A stretch of 64,000 bases of DNA, taken from contig DASREL010000107.1 of the NCBI GenBank assembly GCA_035652075.1, positions 12,385 to 76,384 on the forward strand, given 5' to 3'. This document shows positions 15,379 to 56,337 of this stretch, piece after piece. The stretch comes from Vicinamibacterales bacterium. GTDB taxonomy: Bacteria; Acidobacteriota; Vicinamibacteria; Vicinamibacterales; CAVVIG01. The notes under the pieces were generated by a model. The model did no database searches. It saw only the letters and a program-made list of their open reading frames with translations, and was not told the origin of the DNA. Numbering within the stretch: the first letter of the stretch is position 1; each line of letters opens with the position of its first letter. Made by a program: the position numbers and the translations under genes.

Positions 15379-15592
15379 CATCCAGGACGTTTTCCTCAAC
15401 TACGTGCGGCGCGAGAAGCTGACCGTCACCGTCCGGATGATGGACGGTCACGAGCTCGAGGGGCGCATCAAGAACTTCGATCGCTTCGCGGTCGTGCTCG
15501 AAACGCAGGGCACCGATCAGATGATCTTCAAGCACGCCATCGCCGGCATCAAAACACCGAAGCCGGTCGCCAACTACTTTTCCCACTCCTAG
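15362..15592 (+). CDS. hfq: RNA chaperone Hfq
   Basis: IQDVFLNYVRREKLTVTVRMMDGHELEGRIKNFDRFAVVLE...IFKHAI carries the Sm1/Sm2 motifs. Conserved miaA-hfq order. Confidence 0.95.
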   Translation: MNAQANIQDVFLNYVRREKLTVTVRMMDGHELEGRIKNFDRFAVVLETQGTDQMIFKHAIAGIKTPKPVANYFSHS

Positions 15593-16770
15593 TGTTCACG
15601 CGCGCCATCGTCATCGTCATGGACAGCGTCGGCATCGGCGAGTTGCCGGATGCGGCGGACTACGGAGATCAGGGCAGCAACACGGTCGCCAACATCGACC
15701 GTCGCGTCCCGCTGAGGGTCCCAACCCTCCGCGCGCTGGGGTTAGACCAAATCGTCAGACTGAACAGTCTGACTAAGAAGTCTGACCAAATAGTCAGACT
15801 TCCCGCGTTCGGGAAGATGGCGGAGGCGTCGGCAGGGAAAGATTCGGTCACTGGACATTGGGAGATGATGGGAATTGTCCTGGACAAGGCATTTCCGACA
15901 TTCCCTGACGGGTTTTCGAACGACGTGTTGGAAGAATTTGCCCGCCAGACGGGACGCGGTGTCCTCGGCAACAAGGCCGCTTCGGGGACCGCAATCATCG
16001 ACGAGCTCGGTCCCGAGCACATGCGGACCGGCAAGCTGATTGTCTACACGTCGGCCGACAGCGTCTTCCAAATCGCCGCGCACGAGGACATCGTGCCCGT
16101 CCCCGAGCTGTATCGCGCCTGCGAAGTCGCCTACCGCATCGTCGGCGAAGGCCTCGGGGTGGGCCGCGTCATCGCGCGACCCTTCGTCGGCGCGCCGGGC
16201 AGCTTCAAGCGGACCGCGAATCGTCACGATTACGCGCTGCCGCCGTCGGGCGAAACGTTTCTGGACCGCGCGAAGGCCGCCGGCATCCCGGTCGTCGCGA
16301 TCGGCAAGATCGAGGATCTCTTCGCGGGACGCGGGATCACGAAGGCGATCCACACGAAGAGCGACGATGACGGGATGGACAACGTCGAGCGCCAGATGGC
16401 GGAGCTGGACCGCGGGTTCATCTTCACGAACCTGGTCGACTTCGACACGCAGTACGGCCACCGCAACGACACCGAAGGCTACGCGCGCAACCTCGAACGC
16501 TTCGACGCGCGGCTCGCCGCGATCCTGCCGCGCCTGCGCCAGGACGATCTCCTCATCGTGACCGCGGACCACGGGAACGATCCGACGACGCCGAGCACCG
16601 ATCACGCGCGCGAGTATGTGCCGCTGCTCGTCACCGGCACGCGCGTGCGCGAGAATGTCGACCTCGGTATTCGCCGCACCTTCGCCGACGTCGCGCAGAC
16701 GCTGGCCGAGAACTTCGGCGTCGGCCGTCTTGCGAACGGCACCAGCTTCCTCAGTACAATCAGCGCGTGA
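15592..16770 (+). CDS. deoB: Phosphopentomutase DeoB
   Basis: VIVMDSVGIGELPDA, GKDSVTGHWEMMG, TADHGNDPT. TAGTG overlap with hfq. Confidence 0.9.
   Translation: MFTRAIVIVMDSVGIGELPDAADYGDQGSNTVANIDRRVPLRVPTLRALGLDQIVRLNSLTKKSDQIVRLPAFGKMAEASAGKDSVTGHWEMMGIVLDKAFPTFPDGFSNDVLEEFARQTGRGVLGNKAASGTAIIDELGPEHMRTGKLIVYTSADSVFQIAAHEDIVPVPELYRACEVAYRIVGEGLGVGRVIARPFVGAPGSFKRTANRHDYALPPSGETFLDRAKAAGIPVVAIGKIEDLFAGRGITKAIHTKSDDDGMDNVERQMAELDRGFIFTNLVDFDTQYGHRNDTEGYARNLERFDARLAAILPRLRQDDLLIVTADHGNDPTTPSTDHAREYVPLLVTGTRVRENVDLGIRRTFADVAQTLAENFGVGRLANGTSFLSTISA
15741..15803. repeat. Intragenic 13-nt-period array of GTCWGAC heptamers inside deoB
   Basis: gttagac(15741) gtcagac(15754) gtctgac(15767) gtctgac(15780) gtcagac(15793). 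The array is locally AT-rich and in frame, and encodes DQIVRLNSLTKKSDQIVRL. Confidence 0.9.
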
Positions 16771-30493: not shown

Positions 30494-30811
30494 ATGGATC
30501 TGCCGCAGGGCACATTGGATCTGCTGATCCTGAAAGCGATCGCGCTCGAACCGCAGCACGGGTGGGCGATCTCGGAACGCATTCAGCAGTTCTCGAATAA
30601 CGCGCTGCGCGTCAATCAAGGTTCCCTCTATCCCGCGCTCCATCGTCTCGAACGCAAAGGCTGGATCAAAGCCGAGTGGGACGTCTCCGATAACAACCGC
30701 AAAGCGAAGTACTACGAGCTGACCGCGAAAGGGAAGCGGCAGCTCGCCGAGCAGACCGATGCATGGCGAGCGCTGACGGCTGCCGTTGGTCTGCTGCTGG
30801 ATCAGACGTAA
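30494..30811 (+). CDS. PadR-family transcriptional regulator (module 1)
   Basis: GTLDLLILKAIALEPQHGWAI...GSLYPALHRLERKGWIKAEW...KYYELTAKG. Confidence 0.9.
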   Translation: MDLPQGTLDLLILKAIALEPQHGWAISERIQQFSNNALRVNQGSLYPALHRLERKGWIKAEWDVSDNNRKAKYYELTAKGKRQLAEQTDAWRALTAAVGLLLDQT

Positions 30812-30866
30812 GCAGCCCTGAAGACTGCGCTACACACGAGGCGGCCCTGACGGGCTGCGCGACAAA
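30812..30866 (+). repeat. Two tandem copies of the 25-nt hairpin element GCAGSCCTGAAGGSCTGCGCTAC
   Basis: gcagccctgaagactgcgctacaca (30812-30836) and gcggccctgacgggctgcgcgacaaa (30841-30866). The second copy ends 2 nt before the permease ATG. Confidence 0.8.
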
Positions 30867-30868
30867 CG

Positions 30869-33484
30869 ATGCTGAGCGATCTGTTGTTCCGTCTACGTGC
30901 GCTGGTGCGCGGTCGTCGCCTCGACGAGGAGATGGCTGACGAGCTGCGCTTCCATCTCGAGCGCGAGATCGAGAAGCTCGTTCGGTCGGGAATGTCACGC
31001 GACGAGGCGACACGCCAGGCGCGTCTCGCTTTCGGGGGCATCGACCAGACAAAGGACGCGTGTCGTGATGCGCGCGGGATCTCGTTCGTCGAGACGCTGC
31101 TGCAGGACGTGCGCTACGGCGTCCGAGCGATGCGTCGGAGCCCGGCTTCTGCGATGGCGACAATCGTCACGATTGCGTTGTCGTCCGCCGCGATCGCGAC
31201 CGTGGCGAGTCTGGGCTACACATTGCTGTGGCGTCCGCTGACAGTCGATCGGCCGAACGAGGTGGTCGCCATCACCGCCGCACATGGACGTGCGAACGAC
31301 GGAATCGCCGCGTATCCCGTCTCGTATCCGGACTACGTATCGTTTCGCGATCGGACGACAACGCTCGCTGCGCTCGCGGCGCACTATCCGTTCGCGCCGC
31401 TATTCGTGACGGCAAACGGCACGGCGAGGGAAGTCAACGGCGCGGTCGTCTCCGCGAATTATTTTTCGCTGCTCGGCATCGAGCCAGAGCAGGGGCGCTT
31501 TTTTCACGCCGACGAGGACCGTGTGCCGGATCGCGATCGCGTCGCCGTCATCGGTCACGATTTCTGGCGGACATGGCTCAACGCGTCGCCAACGGCGATC
31601 GGATCGTCACTGACGGTCAATGGCGTACCCGTCACGATTATCGGCATTGCACCCGCGAGCGTTCCGATGCTGACGCCGGTGCGCGTCAACATCTATATCC
31701 CCACGATGATGCTGCGGGTCGGCTATCGGTGGTGCGATGCGCTCAACGACAACACGTGCAACACGCTGCAGATGGTCGGCCGGCTGGCGCCGGATCGCAC
31801 GCTCGAGGACGCGAACACCGAATTTGCGGCGATCCTGCCGGCGAAATGGAAAAGCGCGCCAATCGGCCAGAACCGCGGCGTCCTCGTTCGTCGTCCGCGC
31901 GGGATGTCCGAGGACGATGACGAGCCACGATTCGTGGCGATCCTCGCAGGCGCGGCCATCGTTCTCTGGATCGTCTGCTGCATCAACCTGGCCGGGCTGC
32001 TGACGGCGCAGTCATCGGCACGCGCACCCGAATTCGCGATCCGCGTGTCGCTCGGCGCCGGTCGCATCCGCATCATCCGCCAGGTCGTCACCGAGTCGTT
32101 GCTGCTCGCGACGATCGGCGGCATCGGCGGCGTTCTGGTGTCGCGCGGTTTCATCGCGGTGCTCGCACGCATGTTCTTCTCGACAGATGACGAAGGGCAT
32201 GTGCTGTTCTACGACTTCAGCCCGACAACGTGGATCGTCGTCGCGACGGTGGCGGCAGCGCTTGCTGCAGGGCTGATCTTCAGCGTGATTCCGGCACTCA
32301 ACGCGGTCAATCGAGCCAACGTCACGGCGGCGACACGAACGGCGAGCGGTCGCTGGTCGACGACGCGATGGCTGCTGGGCGCGCAGGCGGCCGCTGCCGT
32401 TGCGATGATCGGCACGGCAGCGCTGCTCTACGGAAGCGCGCGGATGATTCTCGCCGGCCGCCACTACGACACGTCTCACGTGGCATTGATGCGGCTTCGG
32501 CCGCGACTGCTGAAATACACGCCGGAACGGGCGCAGCGATTTCAGCACGACGTGATTCGTCGGCTTGCGGCGCTCCCGTCGGTCGAGTCCGCAAGCCTGG
32601 TTGGTGTGGGTGCTGTCCTCGGCGGCGGGACCGCGACGCTGAATACCCACATGCGCGTGCGCTACAACGAAATCGGCCCCGCCTATTTCGCCACGCTCAG
32701 GGCGCCGCTCGTCGCGGGCCGTGAGTTCGACGAGCGAGACACCCTGCAATCACCGCGAGTCGCGATCGTCAACGAAACGCTGGCGTCGCGGTTGGCGCCT
32801 GCAAGTCAAGCGCTGGGGGCAGCCGTGACCATTGACGGGACGACGTATCGGGTCGTCGGTGTTGTCGCGGACCTCACGCTGCAAGCGCGCAATCACGAGG
32901 CAGAGCCCTGGGCGTACACGCCGTTCTGGCAAAACGCTGGCGAGATCGACTCACGCCTGGCCGTTCGGGTCTCCGGCGATCCAGCTACGGCGCTGTCAGC
33001 GCTCGCACGCGAGGTCCACGCAGTCGATCCGGACGTGCCGATCGCCGAAACGATCACGCTGCCGACGCAAATGGAGGGTCTCACCCGCCCGATTCGGGTC
33101 GGCGCGGTGTTCGTCGGCTACGCCGCAGCGCTGGCGACGATGCTGACCGCGGTCGGCCTGTATGGTGCGCTCGCGTCGGCAGTCGCACGACGAACGAAAG
33201 AAATCGGCATCCGGCTCGCGCTCGGCGCACGGCGGCAGCAGGTCGTCGGGGCGATCGTGCGCGACGGGGTTCTTCTCGTGACGGTCGGCAGCATGGTCGG
33301 CATGCTGCTCGCTCGGGCCGCGTCGCGTGCCGTCGTCCACTTGTTGTACGGATCGCCGGCCGGCGACTGGATGCTGTTTGCCGCGGCCGCGCTGGCCGTC
33401 GTCACCGTTGGTGTGGTGGCATCGCTCCTCCCCGCACGCCGCGCGGCGGCCGTCGAACCGATTTCCGCGCTGCGCCAAGAGTAG
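30869..33484 (+). CDS. ADOP-type duplicated FtsX/MacB-like ABC permease (module 1)
   Basis: N-terminal cytoplasmic helix region (LRFHLEREIEKL...). Two blocks of 4 TM helices, each with a large periplasmic domain. C-terminal KEIGIRLALGA FtsX motif. No adjacent ATPase. Confidence 0.85.
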   Translation: MLSDLLFRLRALVRGRRLDEEMADELRFHLEREIEKLVRSGMSRDEATRQARLAFGGIDQTKDACRDARGISFVETLLQDVRYGVRAMRRSPASAMATIVTIALSSAAIATVASLGYTLLWRPLTVDRPNEVVAITAAHGRANDGIAAYPVSYPDYVSFRDRTTTLAALAAHYPFAPLFVTANGTAREVNGAVVSANYFSLLGIEPEQGRFFHADEDRVPDRDRVAVIGHDFWRTWLNASPTAIGSSLTVNGVPVTIIGIAPASVPMLTPVRVNIYIPTMMLRVGYRWCDALNDNTCNTLQMVGRLAPDRTLEDANTEFAAILPAKWKSAPIGQNRGVLVRRPRGMSEDDDEPRFVAILAGAAIVLWIVCCINLAGLLTAQSSARAPEFAIRVSLGAGRIRIIRQVVTESLLLATIGGIGGVLVSRGFIAVLARMFFSTDDEGHVLFYDFSPTTWIVVATVAAALAAGLIFSVIPALNAVNRANVTAATRTASGRWSTTRWLLGAQAAAAVAMIGTAALLYGSARMILAGRHYDTSHVALMRLRPRLLKYTPERAQRFQHDVIRRLAALPSVESASLVGVGAVLGGGTATLNTHMRVRYNEIGPAYFATLRAPLVAGREFDERDTLQSPRVAIVNETLASRLAPASQALGAAVTIDGTTYRVVGVVADLTLQARNHEAEPWAYTPFWQNAGEIDSRLAVRVSGDPATALSALAREVHAVDPDVPIAETITLPTQMEGLTRPIRVGAVFVGYAAALATMLTAVGLYGALASAVARRTKEIGIRLALGARRQQVVGAIVRDGVLLVTVGSMVGMLLARAASRAVVHLLYGSPAGDWMLFAAAALAVVTVGVVASLLPARRAAAVEPISALRQE

Positions 33485-41015: not shown

Positions 41016-41017
41016 CG

Positions 41018-41043
41018 CTCGGCTGAAGCCTTCGCGCTACGGG
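41018..41043 (+). repeat. Degenerate copy of the 25-nt hairpin element
   Basis: ctcggctgaagccttcgcgctacggg. It shares CTGAAG...CGCGCTAC with the other copies, but the stem is shorter. Confidence 0.4.
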
Positions 41044-41055
41044 ACGACCACCACG

Positions 41056-43131
41056 CTACGGGACGACGACGACCGGCGCCCGCCAGAACGTGGCCTTCGA
41101 CTCGCCTGGCTCGAGGACGCTGACCTGCACGTCGTATCGTCCGACCGCCAACTCGTCGAGCGGGACGCTGAAGCGCAGCGGCATCGCCTTAGTCTTCGGA
41201 TCGACTTCGCCGATGATCGCGAGCGGCGCCGTCTCGAGCGCCTTCGTCGCTCCTCGATAAAACGTCACGAACGCGACGAGCGGCTGCGTCGTGGCCTCGC
41301 TCCGTTCGTACGCCTGCAGGAACACATACAGGTCCTTGCTTTTGCTGAACACGCGCGTGACGCTCGGCAGGAGCTTCGCGCCGTCGAAAACGAGTGGATT
41401 GACGGTTTCGACGTCCTTCTTCACGGAGTAAATCGCCTGCGCAAGCGGCACGCGCTGGCTGCCGAGGACGACGGAACTGATCGGGACGCGCGCGGTTTCG
41501 CGATTCAGATTCGGGATCGTGAAGTTCGCCTGATAGGTGCCGATGCGGCCCGTTTCGGCGTCGCGAGCCAGCACCTTGATCACGTACTTGCCAGGCAGCA
41601 ACGTGAATCCCGTTTCGTACTGGACCGGATGCTTTGCCAGATCCTGCGCCGTCTGATCGGTCAGCTTGATGTCCAGCTTGTCGCGGACGTTCTGCATTGT
41701 CACGCCGTAGTCGTCCTTCACCTCGCCGATGAAGTCGATTTCGGTGCGCGCGGCGCCGCGACGACGCGCGAGCGCCAGTTCGCTGCCCGGAATCTTGACT
41801 GACACCGGCACGAAGTACTCGGCGCGATTCAACTGGAAGTAATTGATTTCCATCGCGACAGGGATGTCGGTGACGGGGTTCTCGAGCATCAGCGCTTCTT
41901 CGAGCTGGCGCTCCTTGTCGGCCGCGGTGAATTTCCCGAACTCGCGGTCAGCGAAGTAACCCTCGCGGTAGGCGAGATCGCCGGCGAGTCCATTGCGCAG
42001 TGCCACTTTGACGCGGTGGAACTTGCCGTCGAGGGCCGGATGTGTGCTCGTGTAGCCGAGGATGTAATAGCTCGACAGCGACTGCGACGCCTGCACGATC
42101 CCTTGCGACAGATCGTTGTTGTCGAATAGCGCCTTGCCGCCCGTATCTTTCGCTAACGCGTACAGCGTGTCCTGCGACCGTTGAAACTGGTTGAGCCGTG
42201 TGTTGGCTGACTGACCGGTCAGCATGCCGATCCCACGCGGCGAGGCTTGCGTCGCGTCGCCAAGAGGCGCCTCGGCGACGAGGCCGCGGGCGTCGACCGG
42301 AAAGATGGCGACGTTCGCGCGCGTGGCGGCGTTGATCGTGGCGCGCAGTTGCGCCTGATTGTCGACGCCGTTCAGCCGCAGTCCGCTCGAGAAGTACACG
42401 AGCGATTTCTGCTCGGGCAGCGACCGCAGCATCGTCGCGGCCGTCTGCAGCGCCGACAGCTGCCGATCGGTGTTCAGAATATTGAACTCCGCATCGTCTT
42501 GGCCGAATGCGCTGCCGACGTCAGTCTCCTGGTCGGGCAGGTCGCTCGCATCGCGCGACTCGCCGTAAATCAACGTCTCGACGACTTGCTGGAGCGCCGC
42601 GCGGTCGCCGTTGAAATCCGTTTTGACGCGGACCGCGCCGTTCTGGAACGTCAGGATCGCGACAAGGTCCTGCGGCCGGATCTGCTCGGCGAGATATTTC
42701 CGTGCGGCGGTGAATGCGCGCATCTGATCGGGCGGCGGCATCGAACTGAGATCGAAATACAGAACGATCAGCCGCCGATCGCGATAGCGAATGGCCCCGG
42801 CCGTCGAGGCGGCGATGGTCGGTTGCACCGCTGGCGCAGCGCTCGCGGCGCGCGGTGGAGGCGGCGGCGCCGGCGGCAGCGGACGATCGACGGCCGGATC
42901 GATCTCGATGCGCTGAAAGGCGACTTGCGAGATCGTCTGCGGCTCGCCGTCTTCGGTGAGCACGAAGTCGTTCGCGGTGAGCCCATCGATGGGTTTGCCC
43001 TGTTTGTCGGTGACCGTCACGTCGACCACGTTCAGGCGTGCGCCGCTTCTGAAGACCGGCGTCTGGCCGGGTTGCTGCGCTGCGACGAGCGCGGACCCGC
43101 ACGCGATCAACACAAGCACGCGACGCAGCAT
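41056..43131 (-). CDS. Secreted VWA-domain protein (acidobacterial TIGR03436-like)
   Basis: The start is set at MLRRVLVLIACGSALVAAQQ (signal peptide), with the ATG overlapping the upstream stop (TGATG). FRSGARLNVVDVTVTDKQGKPIDGLTANDF and LIVLYFDLSSM are VWA-like motifs. Confidence 0.75.
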   Translation of the reverse strand: MLRRVLVLIACGSALVAAQQPGQTPVFRSGARLNVVDVTVTDKQGKPIDGLTANDFVLTEDGEPQTISQVAFQRIEIDPAVDRPLPPAPPPPPRAASAAPAVQPTIAASTAGAIRYRDRRLIVLYFDLSSMPPPDQMRAFTAARKYLAEQIRPQDLVAILTFQNGAVRVKTDFNGDRAALQQVVETLIYGESRDASDLPDQETDVGSAFGQDDAEFNILNTDRQLSALQTAATMLRSLPEQKSLVYFSSGLRLNGVDNQAQLRATINAATRANVAIFPVDARGLVAEAPLGDATQASPRGIGMLTGQSANTRLNQFQRSQDTLYALAKDTGGKALFDNNDLSQGIVQASQSLSSYYILGYTSTHPALDGKFHRVKVALRNGLAGDLAYREGYFADREFGKFTAADKERQLEEALMLENPVTDIPVAMEINYFQLNRAEYFVPVSVKIPGSELALARRRGAARTEIDFIGEVKDDYGVTMQNVRDKLDIKLTDQTAQDLAKHPVQYETGFTLLPGKYVIKVLARDAETGRIGTYQANFTIPNLNRETARVPISSVVLGSQRVPLAQAIYSVKKDVETVNPLVFDGAKLLPSVTRVFSKSKDLYVFLQAYERSEATTQPLVAFVTFYRGATKALETAPLAIIGEVDPKTKAMPLRFSVPLDELAVGRYDVQVSVLEPGESKATFWRAPVVVVP

Positions 43132-52400: not shown

Positions 52401-53138
52401 TTACTTGGTGACGACTTCGTAGGAGCCGGACGTCGGCTTGGTGTTCGTGTAGAGCGGAATCGCGCGGCCGTCGACGTACTTCGTGACCTTGTAGAGCGTT
52501 GCGCCGCTGCCGCGCAGTTCGATCGGGCGACCGCCCGCGAGGCGATTGACGCTCGCGACGTAGTCTTTCGTTTCCCGGTAGGGCGGCACCGTTTGACCGT
52601 GATTGTCGACGGCGCCCGGTCCGGCGTTGTAGGCGGCGAGCGCGAGTTCCTCGTTGTTGTCGTAGCGATCGAGCAGCGCGCGCAGGTAGGCGACGCCTGC
52701 GCGAACGTTTTCCGCCGGGTTGTAGGCGTTCCGCACGCCGTACTGTTTCGCCGTCGCCGGCATCAGCTGCATCAACCCCATTGCGCCCTTGGGCGATCGC
52801 GCAAGCGGGTTGAATCCCGACTCCACTTGCATCACCGCGCGCACCAGATCGACGCGCACGTTGTTTTCGCGTGCGTGCTCGACGATCAGATCATCGTACG
52901 TCCGCGACCGTTCTCCAGCCACATACCGCGTTGCGCGAATGCTCTGCGATTCGCGGACGGCGAACGTCTTCCGCGCCTCACCTGGCTTATGATCGGAAAG
53001 GACGAGGTGTCCGTTGGCGTCGCGCCAGGTGTAGATCTGCGCGCGCGCCGGCGCGGCCGCCAGCACTATCGTTGCGGTCAGGATGTAACGGAGCCCATTC
53101 GGGCTGCGGAAACTGCTGAGCATGCGCCGGTAAGTCAA
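52401..53138 (-). CDS. Lytic transglycosylase (SLT domain) with an N-terminal DUF4124-like segment
   Basis: IYTWRDANGHLVLSD, then VMQVESGFNPLARSPKGAMGLMQLMPAT and AYNAGPGAV. Confidence 0.85.
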   Translation of the reverse strand: MTYRRMLSSFRSPNGLRYILTATIVLAAAPARAQIYTWRDANGHLVLSDHKPGEARKTFAVRESQSIRATRYVAGERSRTYDDLIVEHARENNVRVDLVRAVMQVESGFNPLARSPKGAMGLMQLMPATAKQYGVRNAYNPAENVRAGVAYLRALLDRYDNNEELALAAYNAGPGAVDNHGQTVPPYRETKDYVASVNRLAGGRPIELRGSGATLYKVTKYVDGRAIPLYTNTKPTSGSYEVVTK

Positions 53139-53172
53139 CAGTTTAACTTATCGGCAGCGGCTGCACGATTCT

Positions 53173-53198
53173 GCAGCCCTGAAGGGCTGCGCTACGCA
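53173..53198 (+). repeat. 25-nt hairpin element copy
   Basis: gcagccctgaagggctgcgctacgca. It forms a perfect 7-bp stem (GCAGCCC/GGGCTGC) with loop TGAA. Confidence 0.8.
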
Positions 53199-53204
53199 CC
53201 CACG

Positions 53205-55853
53205 TTACGACAACATTCTCGCGACGACGCCCTCAGCGGCTTTCAGCATCTCGTCGATCTTTTCGGGCTGCTTGCCGCCTGCTTCGGCGAAATCGGGGCG
53301 TCCGCCGCCCCCGCCGCCGACGATCGGGGCGATTTCCTTCACGACCTGGCCGGCTTTCACTTTTGTGATCAGGTCGGGCGTGACGGCGACGACGATCTGG
53401 ACCTTGCCATCGTTGGCTGACGCGAGGATGACGACGCCGCTCTTGATCTTCGATTTCAGCGAGTCGGCGAGTCCTCGCAGCGCGTCCTTGTCGAGGTCCG
53501 CGACCTTGCGCCGCGCGAGCTTGATGCCGGCGACGTCGATGATGTCGTCGCCGCCGCTCTCGGAACCGCCGCCTCCCATCGCGAGTCTTGTCTTGAGCTG
53601 CGTCACCTCGCGCGCGAGTTTCTTCGCCTCGGCCTGCAACTTTTCGATCGCCTCGACCGCTTGATCCGCCGGCGTGTGCAACGTCTCGAGGACCGACGTC
53701 AACGCCGCGCGTTCGTGCTGCGCCCACTGGACCGCGCCCGCGCCAGTCAACGCCTCGATGCGCCGCACGCCCGCCGCGACGCCGCTTTCGGCGACGATGA
53801 CGAAGAAGCCGATGTCGCCCGTAGCGCTGACGTGGGTCCCGCCGCACAGTTCCATGCTGAACCCAGGGACCGAGACGACGCGGACGCTGTCGCCGTACTT
53901 TTCGCCGAAGAGCGCCATCGCGCCCGCCGCAATCGCTTCCTGCGTCGAGCGGACTTCGGTCGAGACGGTCGTGTTGCGATAGATCTGCTCGTTGACGATT
54001 CGCTCGATGCGGTCGATCTCCTCGCGCGTCACCGGCTGGAAGTGGACGAAGTCGAATCGCAGCCGGTCCGGCGCCACGAGCGAGCCTGCCTGCTTGACGT
54101 GCGTACCGAGCACGGCGCGCAGCGCCGCGTGGAGCAGATGCGTCGCCGTGTGGTTGCGGCGCGTCGCGTTCCGTACGTCAGCATCGACTGTTGCGCTGAC
54201 GATGTCGCCTGCGGTGAGCGTTCCGCGGGTCACCTTGATGTGGTGGAGCCGCGGCCAGTTCGGCACCTTCATCAGGCCGTCGACGACCGCAACGCTCGCG
54301 GCGCCGGACAACGTTCCGGAATCGGAGACCTGGCCGCCGGCTTCCGCATAGAACGGCGACCGATTGAGCGCCACAAACGCGGCGTCGCCGGCCCGCACGC
54401 TCTCGACCTGTTGACCGGCTTCGTCGAATATCGCGATCACGTGCGCGCCGTTCACTTCGGTCGTCGTGTATCCCTCGAAGCGGTCGCCAACGCCCTCGAG
54501 CTCGCGGTCCTTGCCGCCCACGGTGTTCCACGTCATCGCCGACGACTTCGCTTTGAACGTGCTGCCCGCCCGCGCCTTGTCGCGCTGCGAGCCCATCGCG
54601 CGCTCGTAGCCTTCCTTGTCGATCGCGATGCCCTGCGTCGCCGCCGTATCTTCGATGAAGTCGAGTGGGACGCCGAACGTGTCGTACAGGCGAAACGCGA
54701 CGTCGCCGCCGAGCGTCTTCGATTTCGTGCCGCTGACTTTCGTCAGCTCCGCCTCGAGACGCGGCAGTCCCTCGGTGAGGACCGCCTCGAAGCGGTTCTC
54801 TTCCGCGACGATCGTCTTCTCGACCATCTCGCGATTGCGACGCAGCTCGGGATACGCGTCGCCCATCTCGCGATCGAGGACCGCGACGAGCGTGTGCAGA
54901 AACGGTTCGTCGAGCCCGAGGTGCTTCCCATGCCGCATCGCGCGGCGCATGATTTTGCGCAGCACGTACCCGCGCCACTCGTTCGAGGGGATGACGCCGT
55001 CCGCAATCAGGAACGTCGTCGCGCGCGCGTGATCCGCGACGACGCGCATCGAGACATCGGACGGTTCCATCGTTCCTTTGTAGCGATGACCGGTGATGCG
55101 GCCGATTTCGGTGAGGAGCGGCGTGAAGATGTCGGTGTCGTAGTTCGATTCCTTGTGCTGCAGCACCGCGTTGATCCGCTCGAAGCCCATGCCCGTGTCG
55201 ATCGACGGCGCCGGCAGCGGCTTCAGCACGCCGTCCGCGGTGCGCTCGAATTCCATGAACACGTTGTTCCAGATCTCGATCTCGGGATCGTGGCCGCTGC
55301 CGCCGCGGACGTAGTAAATCTCCGAGCAGCGGCCGCACGGACCGGTGTCGCCCATCTGCCAGAAGTTGTCGTCGGTGCCGAGCTCCATGATCCGATCCGA
55401 CGGCACGCCGAGCTTCCGCCACACGTCGTACGCTTCCTCGTCGCGCGGAATCCCGTTCTCGCCTTTGAAGATCGACACGACGAGCCGGTTCGGATCCATC
55501 TTCCAGACGTCGGTCAACAGGCCCCACGCAAAGGGGAGCGCTTCTTTCTTGAAGTAGTCGCCGAACGAGAAGTTGCCGAGCATCTCGAAAAACGTGTGAT
55601 GGCGATGCGACGGTCCGACGTTGTCGAGATCGTTGTGCTTGCCGCTGACGCGCATCACTTTCTGCGAGGTCGTCGCGCGCGTGTAGTCGCGCTTTTCGCG
55701 GCCGAGAAAGACGTCCTTGAACTGATTCATGCCGGCGTTCGTGAACAGCAACGTGGGATCGTCGCCGGGGACGAGCGGCGAGCTGGGCACGATGCGGTGG
55801 CCCTGCTGCTCGAAGTACTTCAGGAAGGACGACCGTATTTCGTTCGAGGTCAT
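53205..55853 (-). CDS. alaS: Alanyl-tRNA synthetase
   Basis: MTSNEIRSSFLKYFEQQGH, FTNAGMNQFK, IWNNVFMEF, and the C-terminal editing and DHHA1-like region. Confidence 0.95.
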   Translation of the reverse strand: MTSNEIRSSFLKYFEQQGHRIVPSSPLVPGDDPTLLFTNAGMNQFKDVFLGREKRDYTRATTSQKVMRVSGKHNDLDNVGPSHRHHTFFEMLGNFSFGDYFKKEALPFAWGLLTDVWKMDPNRLVVSIFKGENGIPRDEEAYDVWRKLGVPSDRIMELGTDDNFWQMGDTGPCGRCSEIYYVRGGSGHDPEIEIWNNVFMEFERTADGVLKPLPAPSIDTGMGFERINAVLQHKESNYDTDIFTPLLTEIGRITGHRYKGTMEPSDVSMRVVADHARATTFLIADGVIPSNEWRGYVLRKIMRRAMRHGKHLGLDEPFLHTLVAVLDREMGDAYPELRRNREMVEKTIVAEENRFEAVLTEGLPRLEAELTKVSGTKSKTLGGDVAFRLYDTFGVPLDFIEDTAATQGIAIDKEGYERAMGSQRDKARAGSTFKAKSSAMTWNTVGGKDRELEGVGDRFEGYTTTEVNGAHVIAIFDEAGQQVESVRAGDAAFVALNRSPFYAEAGGQVSDSGTLSGAASVAVVDGLMKVPNWPRLHHIKVTRGTLTAGDIVSATVDADVRNATRRNHTATHLLHAALRAVLGTHVKQAGSLVAPDRLRFDFVHFQPVTREEIDRIERIVNEQIYRNTTVSTEVRSTQEAIAAGAMALFGEKYGDSVRVVSVPGFSMELCGGTHVSATGDIGFFVIVAESGVAAGVRRIEALTGAGAVQWAQHERAALTSVLETLHTPADQAVEAIEKLQAEAKKLAREVTQLKTRLAMGGGGSESGGDDIIDVAGIKLARRKVADLDKDALRGLADSLKSKIKSGVVILASANDGKVQIVVAVTPDLITKVKAGQVVKEIAPIVGGGGGGRPDFAEAGGKQPEKIDEMLKAAEGVVARMLS

Positions 55854-55860
55854 CCGATTA

Positions 55861-55885
55861 GTGTAGCGCAGGCCTTCAGGCCTGC
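55861..55885 (-). repeat. 25-nt hairpin element copy (minus orientation)
   Basis: The reverse complement reads gcaggcctgaaggcctgcgctacac. It ends 7 nt before the alaS ATG and covers the recX stop codon. Confidence 0.8.
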
Positions 55886-56337
55886 CGTCGCTGCTGCAGG
55901 GCACGCATGACGCGGTCGTGATCGAATCCTTGTCCGATCAGATAGCGATACAGGCGCTGGAACTCGCGGTCGTCGGCAATCTTTTCTCGACCGCGCAGCC
56001 GCTTCGCCAGCGACGCCTCGAGCAGCTCCTCGTCGTCGATCGACTCGAACACCTCGTCGATCGCTTTTTTTGCCGCTGACTTCGAGATACCGGCGCGTTC
56101 GATTTGCAGGCGGACGCGCATCTTGCCGCGCCGTTTGATGGAGGTCTCGGTCCGCGCGATCGCCTCAGCGACCCGGCTGTCGTCGATCGCCCGCTCCTCG
56201 CGGAGCCGCGCCACCGCGTCGTCGATCGCCTCCTCGTCGTGACCCTTGCGGCGGAGCCGCTGACGGACTTGCAGTTCGGAGAGCTCGCGTCGCGCGAGCA
56301 TCTTGAGGCCGTCGATGTACGCAGGACTAGCGCCCAA
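55876..56337 (-). CDS. recX: Regulatory protein RecX
   Basis: LKMLARRELSELQVRQRLRRKG...AVARLREERAIDD three-helix repeat pattern. Confidence 0.8.
   Translation of the reverse strand: MGASPAYIDGLKMLARRELSELQVRQRLRRKGHDEEAIDDAVARLREERAIDDSRVAEAIARTETSIKRRGKMRVRLQIERAGISKSAAKKAIDEVFESIDDEELLEASLAKRLRGREKIADDREFQRLYRYLIGQGFDHDRVMRALQQRRQA

Follow-up and report, generated by a model that had tools for sequence, protein, structure and literature searches.

A short hairpin-forming sequence recurs in the stretch of DNA analyzed here (64,000 nt, referred to below as the window), and two of its copies stand directly upstream of start codons, those of alaS and of an ADOP-family permease gene. This placement raises the question of whether the element serves the genes that it precedes, as the original prediction had suggested, or belongs to a dispersed family that has come to lie beside them. 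Our analysis favors the second answer. With a probability of roughly 0.93, we consider the element to be a GTAG-tagged REP (repetitive extragenic palindrome), the mobile repeat of a domesticated RAYT (REP-associated tyrosine transposase) whose gene lies outside the window; we do not take it for a regulator dedicated to alaS. Such DNA hairpins are short and non-autonomous, and in single-stranded form they are handled by a RAYT (an HUH/Y1 enzyme), which cuts and rejoins them; such cleavage and rejoining of single-stranded REP DNA is known for the E. coli enzyme only (PMC3733652, PMC6006769).

The canonical element is 23 nt long (GCAGSCCTRAAGGSCTGCGCTAC; the 23-nt consensus is also written GCAGSCCTGAAGGSCTGCGCTAC), and two copies in the window match this consensus exactly and form a 7-bp stem. 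One of these, of subtype C (GCAGCCC stem), is located at 53173-53195 on the plus strand (GCAGCCCTGAAGGGCTGCGCTAC; nhmmer E 3e-06), in the 66-nt spacer that separates the stop of alaS (53205) from the co-directional gene that follows. Relative to alaS it lies in antisense orientation, so that the alaS transcript strand reads GTAG-C-GCAGCCC-TTCA-GGGCTGC. The other, of subtype G (GCAGGCC stem), occupies 55863-55885 on the minus strand (GCAGGCCTGAAGGCCTGCGCTAC; nhmmer E 1.8e-07), in sense orientation at the junction between recX and alaS. Placed in inverted orientation, the two canonical REPs flank alaS (alanine--tRNA ligase; 53205-55853, minus strand; TIGR00344, 911 bits). The identity of recX (55876-56337, minus strand) was confirmed as well, and its last two codons and stop (CAG GCC TGA) consist of REP sequence, the stop at 55878-55876 being the TGA of the hairpin loop.

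Two further copies form a direct tandem between an Acidobacterial PadR-family regulator gene (30494-30811, plus strand; TIGR03433, 150.8 bits) and the ADOP-family duplicated permease gene downstream of it (30869-33484, plus strand; TIGR03434, 610 bits). The copy nearer the permease gene is diverged (30841-30863, plus strand; GCGGCCCTGACGGGCTGCGCGAC; 3 mismatches, nhmmer E 0.18) and reads GCGGCCC-TGAC-GGGCTGC-GCGAC, with a G-T wobble in the stem. Its partner at 30812-30833 on the plus strand begins right after the padR stop (TAA, 30809-30811) and has decayed: 12 nt at its 5′ end and 10 nt at its 3′ end are preserved, the 3′ arm carries one deletion and one substitution, and the broken stem does not fold. 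This copy was missed by the nhmmer profile search. Distances to the start codons were as first described, with a 26-nt element ending 2 nt before the permease ATG (30869) and 7 nt before that of alaS (55853); for the 23-nt core, these distances become 5 and 9 nt.

Of the five copies originally listed, the four at 53173-53195, 55863-55885, 30841-30863, and, in decayed form, 30812-30833 are thus members of one family, and the one placed at 41018 is not. It belongs to a separate REP-like family with six genomic copies (41016-41040, plus strand; CGCTCGGCTGAAGCCTTCGCGCTAC) that has the TGAA loop and GCTAC tail of the main REP and an imperfect stem. In the same place, the tail CGCTACGGGACGAC occurs twice as a direct repeat, 18 nt apart (41035-41066, plus strand). 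The second tail remnant, CGCTAC at 41054-41059, provides the TAG stop (41058-41056) of a VWA-domain gene whose identity we confirmed, and this suggests a truncated second REP unit.

Folded as DNA, the canonical copies at 53173-53195 and 55863-55885 both gave the 7-bp stem and 4-nt loop that had been proposed, at -8.4 and -8.3 kcal/mol and with z values of -2.4 and -3.4, respectively. In 100 shuffles of the window, 0.00 matches to the element were expected, versus the 3 found. No T-tract follows the hairpin in any of the window copies; the tail is GCTAC followed by A/W/C/N/G, which is not T-rich and does not supply the U-tract of an intrinsic terminator. We therefore rejected an intrinsic terminator, in agreement with the original prediction. 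At gathering thresholds, Rfam gave 0 matches anywhere in the window.

Beside the REP downstream of alaS, the start of the neighboring lytic-transglycosylase-like gene (identity confirmed) has features of its own. A REP-like hairpin that lacks the GCTAC tail (GCAGCCC-GAAT-GGGCTCC; 53093-53112, minus strand) lies inside the 5′ end of this gene and encodes the N-terminal FRSPNGLR; similar hairpins stand at the same place in the related genomes G001 (GCGGCCC-GAAA-GGGCTGC) and G002. The true start of the gene is likely ATG 53122, not TTG 53138. Between the REP and the gene, the motif GCCGATAAGNTAAACTGTTGAC (53139-53160, minus strand), which contains TTGAC, is kept in 4/4 genomes of the genus within a spacer that is not conserved around it, and it may be a promoter or an operator.

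We then turned from the window to the assembly that holds it (G000; 5.64 Mb, 227 contigs, 64.7% G+C). The element occurs there in 104 exact copies and in 295 with ≤4 mismatches, and an nhmmer profile search (E ≤ 0.01) placed 250 copies at 172 loci spread over many contigs. With ≤1 mismatch, 226 copies were found, versus 0 for a reversed control pattern. Positions 1 to 23 are near-invariant among the 202 seed copies, with weaker preferences over the six bases past the tail. Read on the complement strand, the element is GTAG-C-GCAGSCC-TTYA-GGSCTGC, that is, GTAG, one nucleotide, and a 7-bp stem closed by a 4-nt loop (TTCA or TTTA). A canonical REP has been described as GT[AG]G set 0 to 2 nt from a fully paired stem of 7 to 20 bp with a loop of 2 to 5 nt (PMC6006769); in tag, stem, and loop, the element is a REP of this GTAG type.

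Each of the seven stem positions is paired in 237 to 245 of the 250 copies (95 to 98%). The compensatory exchange that had been noticed in the window is real, but it represents the sole covarying stem pair within the genome (G:C in 141 copies, C:G in 95), and this variation reflects two subtypes, not free covariation. The 172 loci comprise 102 singlets, 64 doublets, 5 triplets, and 1 quintuplet, and adjacent copies are arranged head-to-head in 43 cases (modal linker, 7 nt), tail-to-tail in 18, and directly in 17. Nearly every inverted doublet is heterotypic (40/43 head-to-head and 17/18 tail-to-tail; 57/61 in total), and direct neighbors are nearly always of the same subtype. The linker sequences of the doublets differ at every locus and share no conserved motif, so that a reading of the doublets as simple copies of one master REPIN, as in Pseudomonas, is not supported. 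Heterodimers, a majority of head-to-head dimers, and variable spacers have been described for GTAG REPs, and it was suggested that mismatched partners avoid the long perfect palindromes that are removed by SbcCD-type enzymes (PMC3733652).

Relic copies of other REP families are also present in G000. These have GTCCGGC or GTCCGCC stems and a TGAA or TAAA loop and amount to ∼14 perfect copies, and no RAYT matching them was found in the G000 assembly. In the relatives G004, G011, G022, and G037, a RAYT is flanked by such stems.

If the element acted on the genes that follow it, its position and orientation should reflect this. We scored both with our own crude codon-usage gene caller, which over-extends 5′ ends, and the gene-relative figures are therefore approximate. 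By these crude calls, 123 of the 250 cores lie wholly between genes and a further 55 run across a gene end, in a genome whose non-coding share is ∼7.5%; the 72 scored inside genes mostly lie within ∼200 nt of a predicted start, and 23 are truly deep. Of the 172 loci, 110 follow a confident stop codon at a distance of ≤100 nt. Singlets have the same orientation as the upstream gene in 31 cases and the opposite one in 32, and copies within 20 nt of a start are sense to the downstream gene in 25 cases and antisense in 29. Hence, the orientation of the REPs relative to neighboring genes is random.

These data bear directly on the idea of a cis-acting RNA hairpin that would control how translation of the gene after it (alaS or the ADOP permease gene) is initiated or coupled. 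Such a role is compatible with the two window copies that lie in sense orientation 5 to 9 nt before start codons and with the preservation of the stem through compensatory change. It is at odds with the balance of sense and antisense copies near starts genome-wide, the majority of loci that follow stop codons, the lack of any Rfam family match, and the 23 copies that lie in frame within genes, and we regard it as highly improbable. AlaRS autoregulates in E. coli. An alaS-specific operator was rejected here, since the element is found throughout the genome and the relatives compared do not have it at alaS. Given the genome-wide position and orientation data, closeness to the alaS and ADOP starts is what would be expected for any intergenic repeat in a compact genome. 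The start-proximal, gene-specific role first envisaged therefore left no sign: orientation is unbiased, most loci follow stops, and copies are missing in relatives. Random orientation genome-wide and membership in a REP family with a cognate RAYT, the outcomes named beforehand as speaking against that role, were both what we found.

REPs supply the stop codons of 47 genes (crude calls). For 31 of them this is a TAG on the GTAG strand, which in 28 cases belongs to the GTAG tag; for the other 16 the REP is in sense orientation, and 15 of these stops are the TGA or TAA of the loop. That a GTAG tag can double as a stop codon has been described (PMC3733652), and the recX stop inside the REP loop is one case among many.

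We asked whether the copies next to alaS are shared by related genomes. The recX-alaS junction of G008 is a 12-nt spacer without a REP, and in G001 another gene is inserted there and no REP is present; G003 has an ambiguous, strongly decayed sequence, of which ∼13/23 positions match the REP by manual count and which forms no hairpin. At the 3′ end of alaS, the REP is absent in G001, G002, and G003, all of the same genus. The sequence near these sites is conserved, which further weakens a role of the hairpin in alaS translation. Within the genus, copy numbers per genome are 226, 75, 1, and 0, and the distribution is patchy across the family and order. Since the corresponding sites of the relatives compared lack them, the window copies are lineage-specific insertions. 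There is nothing special about those by alaS, recX, and the ADOP permease gene, which are ordinary insertions in short intergenic spacers. Should they affect these genes at all, for example through the mRNA hairpin 9 nt ahead of the alaS ATG, this would be a by-product.

The same comparison helps to weigh the idea that the REPs are now host-beneficial RNA elements at the 3′ ends of transcripts (mRNA stabilizers or weak terminators) that are kept by selection, the RAYT being only their historical source. The abundance of loci shortly after stop codons (110/172 within 100 nt) is in its favor, as is the fact that a palindromic stem forms in RNA whichever way the element is oriented, and E. coli REPs are reported to stabilize mRNA and to terminate transcription (cited in PMC6006769 and PMC3733652). 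The hairpin nonetheless lacks a U-tract, the presence/absence pattern and patchy copy numbers (226, 75, 1, and 0 in the genus) fit mobile DNA better, and the GTAG tag and tail are conserved outside the stem, where they would be needed for recognition by a RAYT and not for an RNA hairpin. We consider this explanation very unlikely.

The genome has four matches to PF01797 (Pfam Y1_Tnp). Only one of them, a 162-aa protein encoded at 15634-16122 of contig C142, passed the NCBIfam model NF047646 (REP_Tyr_transpos; 97.5 bits versus a cut-off of 80). Its best solved relative is the E. coli TnpA_REP (PDB 4ER8; phmmer E 7e-05), with which it aligns at HVH/HMH, WQP/WQP, R/R, and the tyrosine of RYTLENPV/DYIYINPV (YxxxNPV motif). 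The HUH, Tyr, and W/Q/R residues have roles in catalysis and in GTAG recognition (PMC6006769). The gene is enclosed by REPs: a subtype-G copy on the minus strand lies 22 nt upstream (15590-15612), and two subtype-C copies on the plus strand are located at the 3′ end (16113-16135 and 16152-16174), the first of which provides the RAYT stop codon, the TAA of its loop. Together, the C142 RAYT gene and its inverted flanking REPs are a REPtron.

The other three matches are Y1/HUH transposase-like genes encoding ∼210 to 225 aa (C157:12311-12970, C147:5247-5924, and C32:1594-2238), and no REPs were found near them. One of the three proteins, the one scanned, scored 76 bits, just under the NCBIfam RAYT cut-off of 80. 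These genes may be the TIR-flanked tyrosine transposases reported for Acidobacteria (PMC3733652).

RAYT homologues with 38 to 48% identity were present in 13 of the 40 relatives searched. In nearly all of these 13 and in six other genomes, a minus-strand REP stands upstream of the RAYT and a plus-strand REP downstream, each homologue having flanking REPs with their own compensated 7-bp stem (e.g., TTCCGGC, GTCCGSC, GCAAGGC, or GCAGGGC), the loop T[GA]AA, and the tail SCYAC. When twelve such RAYT-flanking REPs were compared, both partners proved to be exchanged in six of the seven stem pairs, and pairing was intact in every cell, a count inflated by the finder, which allowed ≤1 mismatch. An independent inverted-repeat search recovered the RAYT-flanking REPs in five genomes (G002, G004, G016, G031, and G041). 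The claim of selection on structure is thereby borne out, by stems paired in 95 to 98% of the 250 copies and compensated across RAYT/REP systems. The hairpin is under selection, which is best explained by recognition of the DNA hairpin by each RAYT. A matching enzyme was not detected in every REP-bearing genome: at E ≤ 1e-10, no RAYT was detected in the REP-bearing relatives G017, G020, and G030, and in G002 of the same genus, with 75 REP copies, the only RAYT detected is flanked by a different REP.

The deep in-gene copies amount to 23 REPs in 14 genes of G000 (C152:5278-9732, locus L163, and 13 others; loci L156-L169), and in every case the reading frame is open. The hosts include genes for the Lhr helicase (7 REPs), a UvrD-like helicase (2), the NAD-dependent DNA ligase LigA (2), and an MFS transporter (2); single REPs lie in the genes for Lon, a heptosyltransferase-family protein (Glyco_transf_9), and an M16 peptidase, and the remainder in other genes. 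Antisense copies read VAQ[PA]FR[AP]A in 13/13 cases although a second frame is open too, and sense copies read A[AG]LK[GA]CAT (7) or SP[EN]GLRY (3). One REP doublet in Lhr amounts to a 19-aa insertion that is absent in G003 of the same genus. REPs within replication and repair genes have been reported earlier (PMC3733652).

By analogy with the E. coli enzyme and the IS200/IS605 transposases (PMC6006769, PMC3733652, PMC3479197), the C142 RAYT would bind the hairpin together with its GTAG guide where the DNA is single-stranded, replication forks being one example, and would catalyze the excision and insertion that disperse the REPs. Its activity would at the same time maintain the hairpin, which could account for the compensatory stem changes. 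On the same reasoning, heterotypic doublets probably persist because their two mismatches block the formation of a perfect long palindrome.

Among the closest known systems is the GTAG REP superfamily with its REPtrons (Di Nocera, De Gregorio & Rocco 2013, PMC3733652; Nunvar 2010; Ton-Hoang 2012). Shared with it are the GTAG end tag, the 7-bp GC stem and short loop, a predominance of head-to-head and a frequent occurrence of tail-to-tail dimers, and subfamilies that differ by complementary stem residues and prefer to form heterodimers. Most copies lie downstream of genes in both, with TAG serving as a stop (28 genes here), units occur inside replication or repair genes (here Lhr, the UvrD-like helicase, and LigA), and the RAYT gene is REP-flanked. 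The survey of this superfamily listed Proteobacteria, Cyanobacteria, Chloroflexi, and PVC, and for Acidobacteria only TIR-flanked tyrosine transposases (PMC3733652). No published description of the present 23-mer family was found in the literature searched.

The E. coli REP/BIME system with its TnpA_REP (RayT/YafM, PDB 4ER8) is similar in having two subtypes (Y and Z) that alternate in inverted orientation and a REPtron built from both, and in the alignment of the HUH motif, the catalytic tyrosine, and the GTAG-recognition W/Q/R residues (PMC6006769). It differs in that the two proteins are weakly similar (phmmer E 7e-05 to 4ER8), the E. coli stem is longer and bulged whereas the one described here is short and perfect at 7 bp, and the linkers between doublet partners are here not conserved motifs. 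Residues E100/H101 of the E. coli enzyme correspond to D/R in the C142 RAYT, as reported for subclasses 2.5 and 2.7. With the REPIN-RAYT system of Pseudomonas (Bertels & Rainey 2011, PMC3116915), our family has in common the inverted doublets, one cognate RAYT per REP family, the many singlets, and the patchy occurrence among relatives. REPINs, however, replicate as units with a recognizable spacer, whereas the spacers here are short (modal length, 7 nt) and differ in sequence at each locus, and the partners are almost always of opposite subtype.

The identical 23-mer is present in many Vicinamibacterales MAGs (Acidobacteriota), and it also occurs in another phylum. The isolate Desulfacinum infernum DSM 9756 has 193 REP copies with ≤1 mismatch (among them loci L055, L069, L079, and L142), together with a RAYT that is 44% identical to that of G000 and flanked by the same REP. 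Further loci with this REP were found in Desulfacinum MAG-79 (L034 and L145) and in an Actinomycetota MAG (L035 and L039). The REP-flanked RAYTs of D. infernum and of another Acidobacteria MAG are only ∼44 to 46% identical to the one in G000. A small midpoint-rooted RAYT tree has a basal grade made up of the RAYTs that go with GCAGSCC stems, and the other stem types are nested within it. It is conceivable, if still rather doubtful, that the RAYT-REP lineage is ancient or has moved between phyla.

For annotation, these results mean that ∼250 hairpins in this genome, including those by alaS, recX, and the ADOP permease gene, should carry the label REP instead of being called regulatory RNAs or terminators. 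Caution is needed with predicted starts and stops in their vicinity, as REPs provide the stops of 47 genes (crude calls) and peptide insertions in at least 14 proteins. The findings add a REP/RAYT system in Acidobacteriota, where the earlier survey had reported only TIR-flanked relatives, and the RAYTs, whose cognate hairpins differ from one another and are fully compensated, could serve for a study of recognition specificity. If the lineage is indeed ancient or has moved between phyla, then either the hairpin has been kept unchanged over a much longer time than its enzyme, or REPtrons pass from one phylum to another, and the family would offer a natural system for the RAYT-REP specificity code, with heterotypic doublets and frame-restricted, in-frame insertions in repair helicases.
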